Source: Escherichia phage E21
DNA length: 58,536 nucleotides
Sequence record: NC_052983.1
Direction: 5' to 3' (one strand)
A program made the position numbers and the translations under genes. Within the stretch, counting starts at the first letter, position 1; each line of letters begins with the position of its first letter. Of the stretch, positions 1,416-15,400 are shown one piece after another. Under the pieces are notes generated by a model. That model searched no databases. It was not told the origin of the DNA and saw only the letters and a list, made by a program, of their open reading frames with translations.

Positions 1416-3491
1416 CTATCCTAATAGTTCACCTAAACGGCTAAAGTCTAACATCGGTCGAGGTTGAAAGGCGAATGGTTTTTCTTCCTCGGGTTCCCTG
1501 ACCATCGTATTATTATCCCATTCCTCCGCCCACGTTGGGGGGTTGTCCCAATTTATCGACTCTACTCGTAATAACTCCGGAGACGTACAAAGGCCCAAAC
1601 AGTAGTAGCTTAAGTCCCATGCTTCGTTTCGGGCTTGCGCTAAATTCTCCCAACCTTTCGCGGTTCTCGTTTCGGCGCATAGCTCCGAGAAAAATTCGTC
1701 CGGTAATTCCCTAGTCATATTATAATAGCCCTTGTGAGGCTCAATACAATCTAGTCGTCCGTTTAATGCGTCTTTCAACAAGTTCGAGTTTAAGAATAAT
1801 ACCGGGATTTCTCCTCTAGCTGCATTCTTATCGTTTTTCCGGTTAGAGTCCGGATAGCTAATACGGGTTCTCGGGTCTGTTACTCGTGTGCCACCTTTCA
1901 ATAAGATGAAGCGAGCATGTTTATTCTTTGTCTTCAAATATCGATAGAACGCGTATGCCATGCCGGTTACGCCAGATTTACCCCCGGAGTCACAACCGGT
2001 CATCTTAATTGACATCATTCTACCGCTACCGTCTGACAACGGATACTCTTTATCTATTACCTGTTTTTCGATAAGTTTCCAGTCTTCTTCGTATGTCGCC
2101 GGCTGTAAGATCATTGCGTCGCCGTCTTCGTCCTTACGCTCCGACTTGTTGATGAAGAACCGGTCTATAACATGAGTGTCATACGGTGAACCCGGGGAAA
2201 TACCGAACACCTGTACTACGAAGCTATTCAATTGAACGTCTATCGTTGCTACGAGGAATCGAACGTCATTCGGAACCATGCCTAGCGGGTAATCTGATGA
2301 CCGGCTTTTCAGTGCTTCCGGTGCGCGGACTGATTCTAACGACTTAGGCTGATACGGCTCACCCATGTTGTTATTCCAGAATTTCTTCAAGGCTTCTTCT
2401 GAGTACGTCCGTTGATATTCGTCAAGGGCATCGAGGTAGATGTTTACCAGTTTTTGCCATGTCGTAAAGGCGGCTGCCGTACCGCGGAGCCAGTAAGAAA
2501 TGAAGTCGGTATGAGGGGCTTTGCCCGTAAGTCTCCCGCTCTTATCAACTTTACAACCCTCCGGAACCCACACTCCGAATAAATTCATTTCAAAGCGTTC
2601 GTCGGGGTGGATCAAACAACCACATTCCGGGCATACCATTTGTACGGTTTCTGCTTTCTCTCGGTTAGATAGCTGTTTTCCGTTGTCCCACGTTAGATGC
2701 TCGAATTTACCCTCGAAATATTCGTCACAGTGAGGACACGGCCATTGCCAACGTCGTCTATCCCCACGGTTGTAAAGCGCAATAATACCGGTACACGGCG
2801 GAGCCTCATGCGGTGACTTAGCTATCCAGTGCGGGTCAAGAATCTCTCTCGACGGGGACGATTCGGCCATAGTCATAGCAAACGAACCAAAGGTTGTTGT
2901 ACGCTGTGTTGCCAAGTCAAATGGATTACCATCACCGCCGATATCGTCGTCCATACGGTCAAAGTCGGTCATCAATATTCTTGGAACCGGTCGTCCGGCC
3001 AATTCGGTCACGGTAGGGTATGTGATAGTTAACATCATACCTGTAATGTATTGTTTATCGAATTTATTGTCGGTGTCTCTACCTTTCAACAATTGCTCGC
3101 CGATTAGCGGGCTGTGTCGGTGAAGACGATCAATACGTCGCATAGAAAAGTCTCGGGCGGCTGCCATTGTCGGACAGAATACCATTGTATCCATCGGTGA
3201 GACTTTGATTGAGTATGACACGCCATTAATGATAATCGCGTCGGTTTTACCTGACTGTGCCGGGCCTACAAACGCCATCTTGCTGTGATTGCGCGAAGTT
3301 AATACGTCCATTGGTTCGACCATATACGGCGTTGTTGTATTCAACCACGGGCCTACATACGACCCGGGAGAATTTACATATCGATATTGAGATGCTGCAT
3401 TAGAAACGGTCAACCTTTCCGGGGGTCGTAAGTTATCCGACATCTTGACCGCGATCTCAAAGAGATTTTTGTATTTAGCCATTCTTGCCAC
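1416..3491 (-). CDS. terminase large subunit (GpA family)
   Basis: 691-aa ORF with Walker A-like GPAQSGKT, followed by W-like and portal genes in lambda order. Confidence 0.9.
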   Translation of the reverse strand: MARMAKYKNLFEIAVKMSDNLRPPERLTVSNAASQYRYVNSPGSYVGPWLNTTTPYMVEPMDVLTSRNHSKMAFVGPAQSGKTDAIIINGVSYSIKVSPMDTMVFCPTMAAARDFSMRRIDRLHRHSPLIGEQLLKGRDTDNKFDKQYITGMMLTITYPTVTELAGRPVPRILMTDFDRMDDDIGGDGNPFDLATQRTTTFGSFAMTMAESSPSREILDPHWIAKSPHEAPPCTGIIALYNRGDRRRWQWPCPHCDEYFEGKFEHLTWDNGKQLSNREKAETVQMVCPECGCLIHPDERFEMNLFGVWVPEGCKVDKSGRLTGKAPHTDFISYWLRGTAAAFTTWQKLVNIYLDALDEYQRTYSEEALKKFWNNNMGEPYQPKSLESVRAPEALKSRSSDYPLGMVPNDVRFLVATIDVQLNSFVVQVFGISPGSPYDTHVIDRFFINKSERKDEDGDAMILQPATYEEDWKLIEKQVIDKEYPLSDGSGRMMSIKMTGCDSGGKSGVTGMAYAFYRYLKTKNKHARFILLKGGTRVTDPRTRISYPDSNRKNDKNAARGEIPVLFLNSNLLKDALNGRLDCIEPHKGYYNMTRELPDEFFSELCAETRTAKGWENLAQARNEAWDLSYYCLGLCTSPELLRVESINWDNPPTWAEEWDNNTMVREPEEEKPFAFQPRPMLDFSRLGELLG

Positions 3492-4059
3492 CTACGGTAC
3501 TCTCTTTGACTTCCGTCTTAGCCCGGTCTCCGAATGCCTCAACGAGTGTTTGCGCCATCTCATTTAGCGCGCCGTCTATCATTTCCGTGATGCGGGTTCT
3601 TTGATGATCGGTGAGGGTGGATTCACGTTCCAGTGAGTCCGTTACTAAGAGTAATGACATGCGTAAGTGTTTAAAAGACTCCGACATTAGCGCTTCTACT
3701 TGGTCGGTAGGCCATAGCTCACCCTCTCTCAACTCGTAGTCCTGCTTAGCTTTCATTCCGTTCCAGAACTCTTTAGAGAGCATTTTAGGAAGCTCGTTGG
3801 GGTGCATTCGCTTAATGTAGGTTTCGACATCATACAGGGGCTTTACTAGGTATGGCGCCACTTCATTTAATTTGTAAATCGGATACCCGCCTCGTTCCCC
3901 GCAAGGAGGAACTTCTCGGATCTTGGGCGTAACGTCTCTACGCTCCATGTTAAATATCTTTGCGATCTGAGTAATGTTAACCCCGTCGAAGATCATCGAC
4001 TCGGATTCACGGTCTAGCTGATTGCTACGACGTCTTGTTGTTACCGGTGCCTTTGCCAT
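3475..4059 (-). CDS. terminase small subunit (Nu1-like, N-terminal HTH)
   Basis: 194-aa ORF directly upstream of TerL with 17-nt overlap; N-terminal region (ITQIAKIF...GERGGYPIYKLNEVAPYL) resembles Nu1 winged-HTH; true start may be the internal Met (MIFDG). Confidence 0.55.
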   Translation of the reverse strand: MAKAPVTTRRRSNQLDRESESMIFDGVNITQIAKIFNMERRDVTPKIREVPPCGERGGYPIYKLNEVAPYLVKPLYDVETYIKRMHPNELPKMLSKEFWNGMKAKQDYELREGELWPTDQVEALMSESFKHLRMSLLLVTDSLERESTLTDHQRTRITEMIDGALNEMAQTLVEAFGDRAKTEVKESTVGGKNG

Positions 4060-10790: not shown

Positions 10791-11075
10791 ATGAAAGAGA
10801 GTAATTTCCCATCGTGGGCGAAGAACAATAAAACGGGTCGACTTAAATTCATGATCCGGCATTTAGCCAGTTTCGCTTCGGAGGAGGGCCACCTAGTTTT
10901 CCTGTGCCGAGACGCTAAACTGTCGGTTCGTGGTGTCTCACAAGCAATCGACCGAGGAGAATTCACCTTTCAAATGGCGGATAAACTCGTTAAGGCTGCA
11001 AGCGTTGCTGGAAACCCGGACGTCACAGTTATGAACCTATTAAAACCTATGGAATCATTTAAAGAGGACAAATAA
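10791..11075 (+). CDS. hypothetical protein
   Basis: 94 aa; RBS AAGGAG 9 nt upstream; stop overlaps primase start (TAATG). Confidence 0.5.
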   Translation: MKESNFPSWAKNNKTGRLKFMIRHLASFASEEGHLVFLCRDAKLSVRGVSQAIDRGEFTFQMADKLVKAASVAGNPDVTVMNLLKPMESFKEDK

Positions 11076-13750
11076 TGTCTAACGTTTTCAAATCTCGTGG
11101 CCCTGAACTTTTCGACAATGGATACGAAGTCGTACCTATTACTCGTATCGACGCAACTGACAGCAAAGGGAAATTATTGTCTGGCGCGGGTAAAGCCCCG
11201 GCGTTAAAAGGGTGGCAGAAAATAGAGATCACTTCTGACATCGTTAATGAATGGGCGACGGGTAGTCGCTCTCGCTGTGGTGTGGGTATTCGTACCCACC
11301 GTAACCCTGCTGTCGATATCGACTGTTTAGACGCCGAAGCGTCAGAACACATGACGGCTTTCGTTGAGTCGGAAGTGGGCTTTGCTCCTATCCGTGTTGG
11401 GCGTGAACCTAAAGCGCTACTCCTCTATTATACAGAACGTCCTTTCACAAAAGTAAAATCAACCATCTTCGTTGATGAAAACGGGAATGAAAACGCTGTC
11501 GAGATATTAGGAAGCGGGCAACAATTCGTTGCTTACGGTATCCACCCGGGAACTAAGAAACCGTATAAATGGGTTACTAAAGGCGAGTCGCCTGCGGAAA
11601 ACCAAGCGGATTTTGACCTTGAAGAAATCACACTAGAAGACGCGAGAAAAATTATTGCGGAATTCGACCGGTATGCGAAAGAGCGCGGTTGGAAACCTTT
11701 AAAAAGTAAAAGCGGTACGGTCATCAAGCCATCTTTGGGCTACTACTTAGATGCTCCGGAAGAACTATCAGACTGGTCGGACGAGTCGGACTTTGACGAT
11801 GATGAAGACGATTGGGTCACTACTGATGATATCACCGATAAATGGGACGGTACTTACGAAGAACTTTACGAAATCTTCGAAAATGATATCGAACCATCTT
11901 ACGATTACCACACTTGGATTCCTGTTCTGGCTGCACTTAAAGACGCCGAACGTGAGCCGGACGAGTTTAAAGAGATCGCGAGAATGTGGTCTGCTCGGGC
12001 CGAGGAGTCTTTCGATAACGATGCCTTTGAAGATAAATGGGAAAACGGTAATTTCAATCGTGTTGGTAAATACGCTAAGACATTACGAGGAGTAATTGCC
12101 GAAGCGGAAAAGATCCAAGGCGTTCGCGAAATTGAGGACGTAGTTATACCTTTATTCGAAAAAGCTACTGACTTGGCCGAGTGGACTTTAGCTGCCGACC
12201 GCCTACGTGAAACGTGGGCTTTCGGTTTAGAAAGAGAGACGGCCATAAACATTGCTTGCGAAAAGTATAAGAAAGTCACTAACGGGTTAAAACTTACGGA
12301 CGTTCAAAAGAAACGATATCTTAGTATCGATTACTCTCTCTTTGACGCTCCCGAATGGTTGGCTCCTTGGGTTTATTGTACTACGGATAACGAGTTTATT
12401 AACTTAGACAATAGAACCAGAATGAACCCTAAATCTTTCGCGAATGCCTATAACCGAGAAACTGTGAAGAAATTCGGGGTAGCTGCGGACGTTTTCGCCA
12501 CGGTTGAAAGACCCGTTCCTGTTATCCACGATACGATGTATTACCCGTTGATGCACGGTGAGATGCCTAAGAACAAATGGAAGCGGGTTCCGGGTATTAA
12601 TGACAAGCGTGTTTTCGAATACAACGGTTTGACGTTCTTAAATACCTTTGACCATCGTTCCATGCCTGAGACCGCAACAAAAATTTCGACCGCTGGATAT
12701 AAGGCGATCGGGGAGGTAAAACGATACTTCGAAATACAGTATCCAGATCCAGACGAACGAAGACATGCGATGGACTGGATCGCGTGGGTTATCAATAATC
12801 CTGTTAGAAAGATTAACTATATGCTTCTCGTTCTTGGTGGTCAGGGTTCCGGTAAAACCATCGTTAAGAAGTTTATGGAACACATGCTCGGCTCTGATAA
12901 CGTCTCTACGATTTCGAATAAGGTTATCCATGGTAATTTTACCGGGTGGCAGTCTGGTCACATGCTCAAAGTTATTGAGGAAATATCGGTGAGTGGTCAT
13001 CGCTACGACGTTATGAACTCATTGAAAGAGCCGATATCGAATGAAACGTTACAGATCGAAGCGAAGTACCGTGACCCACGCCAGTGTGTGAATACTTCGT
13101 CGTATATGGCATTTACCAATGATGTTGGTGCTTTGCCTCTTACATCAAGTGACCGTCGCTTCTTGTTAGTTCGTAGTGCGTTCCAGCACAAGCGTGAAGT
13201 CACTGAATACCTACGGAAAGACCCTAATTACTTTAAACGGTTTGAGAAAGCCTTTACTAAACACGCACCGGAGATCCGCAAATGGTTTAGCGAGTGGGAG
13301 TATTCCGAGGGCTTCAAACACGATGGTAACGCTCCTGAAACGGTGAGTATGGGAAGCATGTCTTTAGCGTCAGAAGACGATTTCACCTCCGTAGTAATGG
13401 GGGCCGTAGATGATTGTGAGAAAGAGTTAGAATTTACATCGGGGATCACAGACGAAGTAATTTTCATTCCATCGGCAGTAGATTTAGTCCGAGATAGGTC
13501 TAAGGTTCCTAACGGGAAAATAATATATCGCATACTCGCTGAATATGGTTTCTTCCGGCCTGTGGATTCTCGTACACAAATAAGATTTAATGACGTAAGA
13601 GGACAAGTTGTTGTCGCGAATAGACATAAATGGCTCTATCCTGATGGGAGTGTCAACGTAGATAAGATTAAAGAGCATTTAGAGGAGAACGAACGCCGGG
13701 TAGAAGAACAAGAAAGCAAGAGAGAGTTAGAAGAAACTGACGTTTTCTAA
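11075..13750 (+). CDS. DNA primase-helicase (prim-pol-like N-terminus, P-loop D5/SF3-type C-terminus)
   Basis: 891 aa; Walker A LGGQGSGKT and Walker B-like region in C-terminal half; acidic linker; typical phage primase/helicase layout. Confidence 0.8.
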   Translation: MSNVFKSRGPELFDNGYEVVPITRIDATDSKGKLLSGAGKAPALKGWQKIEITSDIVNEWATGSRSRCGVGIRTHRNPAVDIDCLDAEASEHMTAFVESEVGFAPIRVGREPKALLLYYTERPFTKVKSTIFVDENGNENAVEILGSGQQFVAYGIHPGTKKPYKWVTKGESPAENQADFDLEEITLEDARKIIAEFDRYAKERGWKPLKSKSGTVIKPSLGYYLDAPEELSDWSDESDFDDDEDDWVTTDDITDKWDGTYEELYEIFENDIEPSYDYHTWIPVLAALKDAEREPDEFKEIARMWSARAEESFDNDAFEDKWENGNFNRVGKYAKTLRGVIAEAEKIQGVREIEDVVIPLFEKATDLAEWTLAADRLRETWAFGLERETAINIACEKYKKVTNGLKLTDVQKKRYLSIDYSLFDAPEWLAPWVYCTTDNEFINLDNRTRMNPKSFANAYNRETVKKFGVAADVFATVERPVPVIHDTMYYPLMHGEMPKNKWKRVPGINDKRVFEYNGLTFLNTFDHRSMPETATKISTAGYKAIGEVKRYFEIQYPDPDERRHAMDWIAWVINNPVRKINYMLLVLGGQGSGKTIVKKFMEHMLGSDNVSTISNKVIHGNFTGWQSGHMLKVIEEISVSGHRYDVMNSLKEPISNETLQIEAKYRDPRQCVNTSSYMAFTNDVGALPLTSSDRRFLLVRSAFQHKREVTEYLRKDPNYFKRFEKAFTKHAPEIRKWFSEWEYSEGFKHDGNAPETVSMGSMSLASEDDFTSVVMGAVDDCEKELEFTSGITDEVIFIPSAVDLVRDRSKVPNGKIIYRILAEYGFFRPVDSRTQIRFNDVRGQVVVANRHKWLYPDGSVNVDKIKEHLEENERRVEEQESKRELEETDVF

Positions 13751-13773
13751 AATATCGCGATTTTCGGTTTAAA

Positions 13774-13800
13774 GAGGTCACATTACGTGGCCTTTTTTAT
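13774..13800 (+). terminator. rho-independent terminator after primase-helicase
   Basis: AGGUCAC-AUUAC-GUGGCCU (7-bp stem, one G.U) followed by UUUUUUAUU. Confidence 0.7.
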
Positions 13801-13806
13801 TGCCCG

Positions 13807-13828
13807 AAAAACGACGCTCCCGATCGGG
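13807..13828. repeat. 21-bp box AAAAACGACG(C/T)TCCCGATCGG, copy 1 (contains perfect palindrome CCCGATCGGG)
   Basis: Repeated with one mismatch at 14787..14807; flanks the ORF-free region. Confidence 0.7.
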
Positions 13829-13854
13829 AATGCACGTTTGGTCAAAAAATGAGC

Positions 13855-13871
13855 GTACAAAATTTATACAG
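13855..13871. repeat. near-palindromic box GTACAAAATTTATACAG, copy 1
   Basis: Second copy TGTACAAATTTTATACAG at 13974..13991; half-site GTTGTACAAAAA at 14080. Confidence 0.6.
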
Positions 13872-13973
13872 AAAAACGTTCAATATTTAACCGATTTTCG
13901 GGTGATCGGATTTTTTGAGTGAATTTCCAATTTTTCATTTTTCCATTTTTTGGTCGAAAAACACCGAAAATGC

Positions 13974-13991
13974 TGTACAAATTTTATACAG
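13974..13991. repeat. near-palindromic box TGTACAAATTTTATACAG, copy 2
   Basis: Direct repeat of 13855..13871, about 120 bp apart. Confidence 0.6.
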
Positions 13992-14786
13992 GGTTTTTTG
14001 ACACAAAGTGTGTCGGTCATGTGTTCCGACGTGTGCGTGCCAGTTAACGTGTTGATTTTATTGAAAACGCATTTTTTATGTTGTACAAAAATCACCCAAC
14101 ACACATGATCGAATTACCTTTATATAGCTTATATATATATTTTTCTATTTTTCCTTTCCTATCTATTTTTTCTTTCTTCTGGAATTTCTATTTTATTATC
14201 TATTACTGTGTTTGCTGTGTCAGAAAGAAAGTAATATAGTAAAAACAATAACTTACCTTGGAACACCTATTGGAACATCAGCCGGCACAGCAATTTCCTG
14301 TGACACACCACCAGCCATGGTAATACCTAAAACGGCGCATAACTATTTGATATTATTACGGAATTACCTAAAATACCGGTCATTACGGTAAACCCGCCCT
14401 CCCGATCTACTAGCTACGCTAGACCCGAATTAATCTAATTAAATCAACGATTTGCGACGAGGGGCTATGGCAGATCCCGGACAAATTTCTGGAAGACGGC
14501 TCTGCGCACCCCCGCCCAACCGGACAACTCGTCCAAGTACCTTTTTCGATTTAAAAGTGATTCTTCTCTAGAAAGCACGGAGAGCGACGCACAGGCTTTA
14601 GCAATAGGGGACATCATCTAACACCGCGATCGCCTCGCACAATCGCACACGCTTACAATTTGAAGCACATCTAACCCACAACACCGCCCACCCGAACACC
14701 CAAACATCGAAACATCACGAAAAGCGGTTATATTTGTAAAAACGTCATGCGGTACAACCGCACACCCGAACACCCGCACAAAACGT

Positions 14787-14807
14787 AAAAACGACGTTCC
14801 CGATCGG
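14787..14807. repeat. 21-bp box AAAAACGACGTTCCCGATCGG, copy 2
   Basis: Direct repeat of 13807..13828. Confidence 0.7.
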
Positions 14808-15012
14808 CGTGTTCACCCGAGGCGCTATACCCCCGCTCAACGGATACGACCGACAAACTTAAAACCCCCTTTAAGTCGGAACAAACAAAGCGCCGTCTTC
14901 CGCCCTCAATCGAACCACACGGGCATAACTCATCGTAGGTAATACATCGGCCTTACCTAGCGGGCAAAACACGCTGAGGACGCAACACATGGCTTTACGG
15001 CAATTTTCCATA

Positions 15013-15067
15013 GGGTGGGGGGGAATGGGGGAGAGTGAGGGCTTGGGGTGGTGGTGTTGGGTGGGTA
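15013..15067 (+). other. G-run tract with G-quadruplex potential (C-rich on the transcribed minus strand)
   Basis: GGGTGGGGGGG..GGGGG..GGG..GGGG..GGTGG..GGGTGGG within 55 nt, directly 3' of the minus-strand small membrane protein gene. Confidence 0.5.
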
Positions 15068-15160
15068 GGCGCTGGCGCGACCGCATGGACAGACTGACGG
15101 CTAAGAACGAGAAAAGCCCCGCACGAATGCGAGGCCTTGGGGGTGGACTGTGTGGGACGG

Positions 15161-15400
15161 CTACCGGATTGTTAGGGCGACGCCTCCGGCGAACACCAAG
15201 ATCGCAACGCAAACCATGAAGACGACCATCATGATAGCGCCGATTGATTCGAGAACTAACGTAGTGCGGTGTAGACCGTCGAAACCGTGGTTTTGTAGGG
15301 CGCGGAAAAAGAACGAGAGAATATAAATCGAAATTAGGCCGAAGAAACACACGGCGCCCACGTTGTACACACCGGAGAGTAGCATCTTGAGAATGCTCAT
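15161..15400 (-). CDS. small membrane protein (2-3 predicted TM helices)
   Basis: Hydrophobic segments VGAVCFFGLISIYILSFFF and IGAIMMVVFMVCVAILVFAGGVAL; start set at internal ATG 15400 (ATGA overlap with upstream gene). Confidence 0.45.
   Translation of the reverse strand: MSILKMLLSGVYNVGAVCFFGLISIYILSFFFRALQNHGFDGLHRTTLVLESIGAIMMVVFMVCVAILVFAGGVALTIR

Follow-up and report, generated by a model that had tools for sequence, protein, structure and literature searches.

What is the function of the interval from 13751 to 15160 in the genome of Escherichia phage E21 (sequence record NC_052983.1), which begins where the primase-helicase gene stops? The preliminary description, made from the sequence alone, had offered a replication origin, a packaging site, or a non-coding RNA (ncRNA) locus. 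In what follows, the window is the whole E21 genome stretch of 58,536 nt, and the region is its positions 13751-15160. We are highly confident that this interval holds the cos of a Proteus phage of the chi-like group (family Casjensviridae, genus Lavrentievavirus), with a probable origin of replication in the arm between the cohesive-end site (cosN) and the primase gene. The chi orientation is the reverse complement of the window, and distances from the left genome end are given as x, which equals 14510 minus the window coordinate.

A BLAST comparison of 13600-15300 found 27 phage records at 93-96% identity. They are mostly Proteus phages, including pPM_01, P-07, P2-71, RP6, ASh-2020a, and Jing313, and their taxonomy is that of chi-like siphophages (Casjensviridae, genus Lavrentievavirus). 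Judged by sequence, E21 is itself a chi-like Proteus siphophage of Lavrentievavirus, about 95% identical to pPM_01, Jing313, and RP6. Several records that are 94-96% identical to these Proteus phages are labelled as phages of Pseudomonas, Enterococcus, Staphylococcus, and Salmonella (PV596763, OR506460, PV593182, and OR699184-7); mislabelling of the host or contamination is likely behind these names.

The cohesive end can be placed from the termini of this phage group. In Chi, GGTGCGCAGAGC was determined by primer extension to be a 12-nt 5′ single-stranded extension (PMC4342425). The same 12-nt end was confirmed in Siskin by Sanger sequencing (PMC6498227), and the ends of Jing313 were predicted by PhageTerm, with 'the same ends present in all six' Proteus and Klebsiella phages of that study (PMC9022528). 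In E21 the identical sequence lies at 14499-14510 and is found once in 58.5 kb, even with one mismatch allowed. The ends of the 27 related records point to the same place: six are exactly at window position 14510, six are at 14569, and one or two are about 20 nt short of cosN, which makes 13 of the 27 that end at cosN or within about 60 nt of it. Klebsiella phage Phraden has a 48-bp exact match (14499-14546) at the very end of its record. The Jing313 record both starts and finishes with GGTGCGCAGAGC; when its two ends are joined so that one copy is kept, the window sequence results. From these comparisons, we take as established where cosN lies and what its sequence is, together with the conservation patterns given below. 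The earlier suggestion that packaging signals may lie here was right, and such signals are already published for Chi and the Proteus relatives; none of the motifs listed at the time is the cleavage site, and the cohesive-end sequence was missed. A gpA-type terminase would nick concatemeric DNA at this site to leave 12-nt 5′ overhangs, 5′-GGTGCGCAGAGC; the left end of the virion DNA would run from 14510 down to 13751, and the right end from 15160 down to 14511.

Some observations on sequence ends and variants at this site can be set beside these data. Metagenomic (Logan) contigs of relatives with primase homologues (P0004, P0006, and P0002) stop either 315-360 nt past the primase stop, inside the AT-rich tract, or about 39 nt before cosN is reached, which agrees with physical ends at cos and with a loss of assembly across the AT tract. 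At cosN, phages ASh-2020a, pPM_01, and SD-12_S18 read GGGGCGCAGAGC; their G-run at the cohesive-end junction is 3 nt shorter, which is probably an assembly artefact at the cos joint and not a real variant. Distant members of the family have variant cohesive ends, namely GGGGCGCGGAGC in Smarc1 (an annotated cos overhang) and GGGGCGCAGAGC in phiAxp-2 (the start of the record). A scan of IMG/VR for GGTGCGCAGAGCCG returned mostly chance 14-mer matches, with about seven usable chi-like contigs.

The position of this cos is unusual, since it is remote from the terminase genes. The large terminase subunit (TerL) is of the gpA type (PF05876 and PF20454). The small subunit (TerS; 3475-4059, minus strand) belongs to DUF1441/phrog_141, matches no Nu1 Pfam family at E≤0.01, and abuts the SNF2 helicase gene, in agreement with the earlier remark that there is no room for a cos beside the small-subunit gene. 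The distance from TerS to cosN is about 10.4 kb. The arrangement is known in the group: in Chi, over 10 kb, including the primase and polymerase genes among others, separate the left cos end from the terminase genes (PMC4342425), and the separation of cos and terminase has also been described for the Proteus relatives (PMC9022528). E21 has the gene order of Chi, with primase beside the left end and terminase more than 10 kb away; its cos lies between the 3′ end of the primase gene and small early genes, as expected for Casjensviridae, with the gpA-type terminase about 10 kb off. Both the identity of the cos and its odd distance from the terminase are thus already known biology, published for this phage group. 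E21 and the cos of Chi and the Proteus chi-like phages (Jing313, DanisaurMW, and others) have in common the identical 12-nt 5′ overhang, the site between the primase 3′ end and small early genes with terminase more than 10 kb away, and the flanking core elements AAAAGGTACT and ATAGCCCC; Jing313 is about 95% identical across the interval. There is no essential difference from the cos of Chi, and E21 is without Chi's gp1 helix-turn-helix (HTH) gene.

How much of the DNA around cosN is likely to be needed for packaging? An alignment of 16 sequences from four genera (Lavrentievavirus, Kokobelvirus, Chivirus, and Yonseivirus) has three invariant parts: CGGG followed by cosN and CG, AAAAGGTACT, and ATAGCCCC. 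Within the genus, diversity is 0% at x-50..-1, and the stretch x+50..+200 (14311-14460) is the most variable, with 7-14% pairwise difference. Outside a core of about 100 bp, the arms of E21 and Chi have diverged. The N-terminal half of TerS is the best conserved part of that protein (77% identical to Chi vs. 38-57% for the rest; TerL and primase are 61 and 38% identical, respectively), which fits an invariant recognition core at cos. Perfect matches to the consensus of integration host factor (IHF), WATCAANNNNTTR, were counted over the whole window, and three of the five fall in the primase-side (left) arm, within 410 bp. Chi has a site, found by eye, at the place equivalent to the IHF site that adjoins cosN, on the other strand. 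Equivalents of the next site were recognized by eye as IHF-like matches in Kokobel1, Chi, and SAKp02, in either orientation.

A short palindrome of the form NNNNC-GTA-GNNNN, located at x+76..+102, was found in every enterobacterial lineage examined except Smarc1. Its stems (CTAGC/GCTAG, TTAAC/GTTAA, CTCCC/GGGAG, TGCCC/GGGCA, TTAGC/GCTAA, and TACC/GGTA) make at least six variants, of which four are perfectly complementary over 5 bp and two are short by the outermost pair. The comparison was made in ungapped register, MAFFT on 29-nt segments having put the Chi-type sequences out of register. The palindrome is weak as a hairpin of free DNA (-3 kcal/mol), and from these sequences a co-evolving site for a dimeric protein seems at least as likely as a hairpin.

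Most likely, the conserved core of roughly 100 bp around cosN contains the sites that the terminase recognizes, arranged as cosQ-cosN-cosB in the manner of lambda: AAAAGGTACT is on the right-end side, and ATAGCCCC, an IHF site, and the co-varying palindrome are on the left-end side. The placement of AAAAGGTACT roughly corresponds to that of cosQ in lambda. Perfect IHF consensus sites stand at 14442 and 14340, and both invariant boxes, as candidate elements, are on the sides expected for a cos of the lambda type. Like lambda, E21 has a large terminase subunit of the gpA type and a 12-nt 5′ overhang; on the right-end side, about 30 nt from cosN, is a conserved element in a cosQ-like position, and the left-end side has a conserved box with IHF consensus sites. 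In contrast to these likenesses, there is no sequence similarity, the cos of E21 is away from the terminase genes, no R-type repeat array was identified in E21, and its TerS matches DUF1441/phrog_141 but no Nu1 Pfam family at E≤0.01. The resemblance is accordingly best described as an analogy, with no demonstrated homology. With respect to direction, a preprint on transposon insertion sequencing (Tn-seq) of JS26, another member of Casjensviridae, proposes that the end with the small early genes is injected first. This end would therefore be packaged last and the primase-side end first, as happens in lambda; the support that this lends is weak and indirect.

The remainder of the primase-side arm raises a different question. 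The stretch 13761-14310 is conserved within the genus as strongly as the coding sequence of the primase (0.5-4%) and has many blocks in common with Kokobel1 and metagenomic relatives, the primases of which are 57-78% identical. The oligopyrimidine and AT-rich tract recorded in the preliminary description was confirmed: of the whole 58.5 kb, 14105-14254 has the lowest duplex stability in windows of 60, 100, and 150 bp (z 4.5-5.2), as would suit an AT-rich melting site, and 14139-14218 is the most pyrimidine-skewed 80-mer. Around it, TGTGYC is located at 14000, 14009, 14216, 14284, and 14302 (5 vs. 0.23 expected, P 4.6e-6 for a word chosen post hoc), and TGTTCC at 14022, 14260, and 14272 (three copies, P 8e-4, the word being chosen post hoc after the relatives had been seen). 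The interval 13990-14320 lies 240-570 bp past the stop of the primase-helicase gene with no gene between, immediately 3′ of the candidate initiator gene. The C-terminus of the primase models as a winged-helix-like domain; a protein search with its C-terminal 200 aa alone gave no matches, a full-length query being needed. The probable origin would be the AT-rich unwinding element with its flanking short repeats (about 13990-14320), which lies between the 3′ end of the primase-helicase gene and the part of the arm nearest cos; the C-terminal winged-helix domain of the primase-helicase would bind the repeats. We consider an origin at about 13990-14320 to be moderately favored. The earlier proposal of an origin is plausible for this interval; E21's own iterons are weak.

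Other indications for an origin were considered and set aside. GATC is not enriched (14 vs. 10.4 expected), which gives nothing to the idea of Dam/SeqA control, and GC skew tracks gene orientation and is uninformative. Of the three E. coli Chi recombination hotspots (GCTGGTGG) in the window, the one at 14308-14315 has no counterpart in any relative's arm and is attributed to chance; the P4-type iteron TGTTCACC at 14811-14818 is a single copy and probably a chance match as well.

The relatives give a clearer picture of the iterons. The arm between cosN and the primase gene was compared in ten lineages, and the counts of 7-mers were set against 300 shuffles. In eight of the ten, a genus-specific 7-mer is repeated 4-11 times, mostly on both sides of the AT-rich peak. 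None of the 300 shuffles reached the observed count in six of these eight lineages; 3 and 7 did so in the other two. The word is GGTTACAA in Chi and Seifer, GGTAACAAAC in SAKp02, of the GTGTGT type in JC01, AACTTAGGGCA in Smarc1, GGTCCGAA in AH2, CCTGCAA in phiAxp-2, and GTCCCAT in pEp_SNUABM_08. Two sets of iterons are clear in Chi, Seifer, SAKp02, JC01, Smarc1, and AH2, and weaker in phiAxp-2 and pEp_SNUABM_08.

The same module could instead be an extended cosB, that is, an array of TerS binding sites with bent DNA for the start of packaging. It occupies the same side of cosN as cosB does in lambda, this arm is enriched in IHF consensus sites, short repeated sites and bent DNA are typical of cosB, and the module always adjoins cos in the family. 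What best discriminates against this explanation is a comparison of the two Yonseivirus phages Seifer and SAKp02. Their TerS and TerL are 99.5 and 99.1% identical, respectively, and their helicase 99%, but their iterons are wholly different. The cos-proximal arm is 79-86% similar at x0-210 and 57% similar from x+210, and the C-terminal halves of the primases are 68% identical. The iteron of Seifer is also that of Chi, and the Chi primase is the more similar one to that of Seifer (85% identical at residues 791-830 vs. 45-47%). Since the terminase is near-identical while primase and iterons differ, the iterons follow the primase and not the terminase, which speaks against an extended cosB and for an origin. 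By sequence, the putative replication module has been exchanged as a unit, with a break about 210 bp from cosN. Moreover, the module begins more than 200 bp from cosN, and the R sites of lambda are much closer than this; genera with different iterons have strongly conserved N-terminal halves of TerS; and the stretch is the stability minimum of the genome, which a cosB does not require. We therefore regard an extended cosB as unlikely.

Could the region instead encode small proteins or an RNA? It is bounded by two gene stops, that of the primase-helicase gene (13750, plus strand) and that of a small minus-strand ORF (open reading frame) at 15161. Both flanks are thus gene 3′ ends and transcription converges on the region. 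The converging operons stop at intrinsic terminators on both sides, so that cos is in a transcriptionally quiet gap; the primase-side terminator is kept in Kokobel1 and metagenomic relatives with an apparent compensatory change (read by eye). The region does contain ORFs of 50-159 aa, hypothetical proteins are annotated there in ASh-2020a, RP6, P2-71, SD-12_S18, and Kokobel1, and Chi and Seifer carry a genuine small HTH gene between cos and primase. However, the seven longest internal ORFs (33-159 aa, mostly with GTG or TTG starts) lose the start, gain stops, or are frameshifted in at least one of seven relatives that are about 95% identical, and the substitutions are mostly non-synonymous. 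Two of the seven stay open across the relatives, yet their changes are amino-acid replacements only, and one of the seven spans cosN itself. The annotations in relatives are in inconsistent places and on different strands, the five internal ORFs that were scanned had no PHROG match, the curated Jing313 record has no gene in its first 760 or last 661 bp, and no homologue of Chi gp1 was found in the window (tblastn best E 3.2). The ORF-free nature of the region is therefore real, as first described, and no credible ORF lies inside it; the homology-supported small ORFs that could have overturned that description were looked for in relatives, with this result. Unrecognized protein-coding genes are highly improbable. 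A locus for at least one ncRNA, with the conserved blocks as RNA structure, is hardly more credible and very unlikely in our judgment. It could draw on the long conserved non-coding blocks, the co-varying 5-bp palindrome at 14410-14422, and terminator-like hairpins (7 vs. 2.5 expected). Against it, no Rfam family matched at the gathering score in the whole window, and the only match at E≤1 in 13700-15250 was to a nematode snoRNA at 19 bits (gathering score 70), which is chance level. The scan for structured RNA proposed earlier thus gave nothing credible at either threshold. A tRNA/tmRNA scan also found none, and promoter-like sites are not in excess (3 vs. 3.2 expected). Both flanks are 3′ ends with strong terminators, the virion DNA is cut in two at cosN within the region, and the conserved blocks are short, resemble protein sites, and occur in either orientation.

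Several points nevertheless weigh against a cos region with an adjoining origin as we describe it. The cosN of E21 was assigned from the termini of relatives and not from E21's own virion DNA, and the roles suggested for AAAAGGTACT, ATAGCCCC, the palindrome, and the IHF sites come from position and conservation. The direction of packaging follows one preprint's interpretation of the Tn-seq bias in JS26. In the primase-side arm of E21, no exact 7- or 8-mer is repeated beyond dinucleotide shuffles, and the same holds for Kokobel1; the enrichment of TGTGYC was found post hoc. The earlier label 'repeat-rich' does not hold for exact words in this arm. That iteron specificity follows the initiator was seen in relatives and is confounded by gp1: in Chi and Seifer, the gp1 HTH gene moves together with the iterons, and its product may be what binds them in these phages; the gene is apparently absent from the SAKp02 arm, in which no search for it was made. 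Finally, almost every family member has its primase gene next to cos, so synteny, which was considered as a means to separate the origin from cos, cannot split origin from packaging functions.

With these points taken into account, we slightly favor a broader proposal for the family. Casjensviridae would carry in the cos gap an origin like those of Staphylococcus aureus pathogenicity islands (SaPI) and phage-inducible chromosomal islands (PICI): two genus-specific iteron sets would flank an AT-rich melting region immediately 3′ of the gene for a fused primase-helicase and would be read by the winged-helix domain at the C-terminus of that protein. Primase and iterons would be swapped as one module, bounded about 200 bp from cosN. 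The E21 version, at 13990-14320, would be degenerate. The candidate and the SaPI/PICI origins are alike in their location immediately 3′ of the (fused) primase-helicase initiator gene, in an AT-rich melting region between short repeats of both orientations, and in a lineage-specific iteron sequence that follows the initiator. They differ in that Casjensviridae are a lytic phage family and not satellites, with a Prim-Pol and SF3 (DUF5906) initiator; that the candidate shares its gap with cos; that the iterons in Lavrentievavirus are short and degenerate; and that origin function is proposed here by sequence only. A second parallel is the alpha protein of P4, a multifunctional primase-helicase that recognizes short iterons (ori/crr) near its own gene through a C-terminal winged-helix origin-binding domain. 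The E21 protein is likewise a multifunctional primase-helicase, with a predicted C-terminal winged-helix-like domain that would have this role, but no homology of the two domains was demonstrated, and the primase domain of alpha probably belongs to a different class. According to the PICI paper, the iterons-AT-iterons layout 3′ of pri-rep is present in no other known bacterial replicon. In the literature, of which our coverage was incomplete, no description of an origin, cosB, or iterons was found in chi-like phages, and novelty is unproven.

For annotation, these results mean that the E21 genome should be opened at 14510/14499 and that the spurious hypothetical proteins of relatives in the gap should be dropped. 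For the engineering of phages and for therapy, since these are candidate Proteus therapy phages, the cos and its minimal conserved core indicate the DNA needed for packaging. The unpublished part is the probable origin beside cos, with an exchangeable primase-iteron specificity. If true, it would give a defined replicon for chi-like phages, and the iterons-AT-iterons layout 3′ of pri-rep would extend from satellites to a lytic phage family. A cos core with IHF sites and a co-varying palindrome, and a probable PICI-like origin, are ordinary in kind and apparently undescribed for the family; the conserved core and the origin are worth a modest follow-up.

Table. Features of the region and the adjoining primase-helicase gene in window coordinates (a dot marks features given without a strand).
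Feature	Position	Strand	Remarks
Primase-helicase gene	11075-13750	+	891 aa; Prim-Pol, PriCT_2, DUF5906/VapE SF3 helicase, and C-terminal winged-helix-like domain; candidate initiator
Intrinsic terminator, primase operon	13771-13803	+	11-bp stem, then U-run; -16.7 kcal/mol, z -4.65
21-bp box, copy 1, AAAAACGACGCTCCCGATCGG	13807-13827 (x+683)	+	GATC-containing palindrome kept here in relatives
Near-palindromes GTACAAAWTTTATACAG, two copies	13855-13871, 13975-13991	.	16/17 match; bracket an A/T-tract array at 13905-13965
Candidate replication origin	13990-14320	.	AT-rich unwinding element (14105-14254) with short words of either orientation around it
IHF consensus site AATCAACACGTTA	14045-14057	-	Perfect; position conserved in Kokobel1
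IHF consensus site TATCAAATAGTTA	14340-14352	-	Perfect
21-bp box, weaker third copy	14390-14407 (x+103)	.	Direct copy with CCGATCGG palindrome
Palindrome CTAGC-GTA-GCTAG	14410-14422	.	Co-varies across genera around an invariant C-GTA-G centre; about 90 nt inside left genome end
IHF consensus site AATCAACGATTTG	14442-14454	+	Perfect; adjoins cosN
Invariant box ATAGCCCC	14461-14468 (about x+42..+49)	-	42-49 nt inside left genome end; candidate terminase (cosB-type) site
cosN, 12-nt cohesive end 5′-GGTGCGCAGAGC	14499-14510	-	Identical to the termini of Chi, Siskin, and Jing313
Right-end core	14511-14560	-	100% conserved within genus; includes AAAAGGTACT
Invariant AAAAGGTACT	14536-14545 (x-36..-27)	-	Kept across four genera
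GGCGATCGCGGTG block	14622-14634	-	Recognizable in four genera (located by eye)
24-nt C/A-rich repeats, two copies	14683-14706, 14757-14780	.	88% identical; contain CACCCGAACACCC; GTGTTCGGGTG on minus strand
21-bp box, copy 2	14787-14807 (x-296)	.	20/21 identical to copy 1, 980 bp apart
C-rich, G-poor tract on transcribed strand	15012-15091	-	G-run on other strand; variable-length homopolymer
Intrinsic terminator, converging minus-strand operon	15113-15138	-	Strong

Most of the remaining repeats named in the preliminary description, namely the two 21-bp boxes, the two near-palindromes, the C/A-rich repeats, and the G-run tract, were found again as listed in the Table. At least five copies of (C/T)GAAAAACG had also been claimed; of that exact pattern the window has three copies (3.0 expected), one of them in the region. 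The looser word CGAAAAW is locally enriched, with 6 of its 43 genome matches in 13751-14560. Comparison with related genomes, as recommended at the time, is what revealed the conservation of the cos core across four genera.

The stretch 13855-13991 holds two of the three TTTGTAC words of the primase-side arm; its blocks are kept in Kokobel1 and in the P0002 and P0004 contigs, and its diversity within the genus is 0.5-2.4%. The box of about 21 bp with the CCGATCGG palindrome has direct copies in both arms. In Serratia phage Smarc1, an analogous 20-bp repeat of a cos-proximal box is located beside the primase terminator (x+42 and x+451).

In the right-end arm, Kokobel1 and SAKp02 have three to four copies of TGTCCGGGTG at the same distance from cosN as the 24-nt repeats of E21, and these repeats resemble the TTGTCCGG words beside cosN; in the right arm of Chi, TGATATACGCGGCGTGCG is present four times instead. 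Relatives have between 0 and 11 nt in the G homopolymer at 15015-15022. Within 15012-15110, the minus-strand transcript has a stretch of about 60 nt, C-rich and G-poor, just past the terminator of the last gene; this stretch is kept in Kokobel1, and by its composition it looks like a Rho-utilization site and could stop read-through into cos. In pPM_01 and P2-71, a 39-bp insertion follows the terminator of the minus-strand operon.

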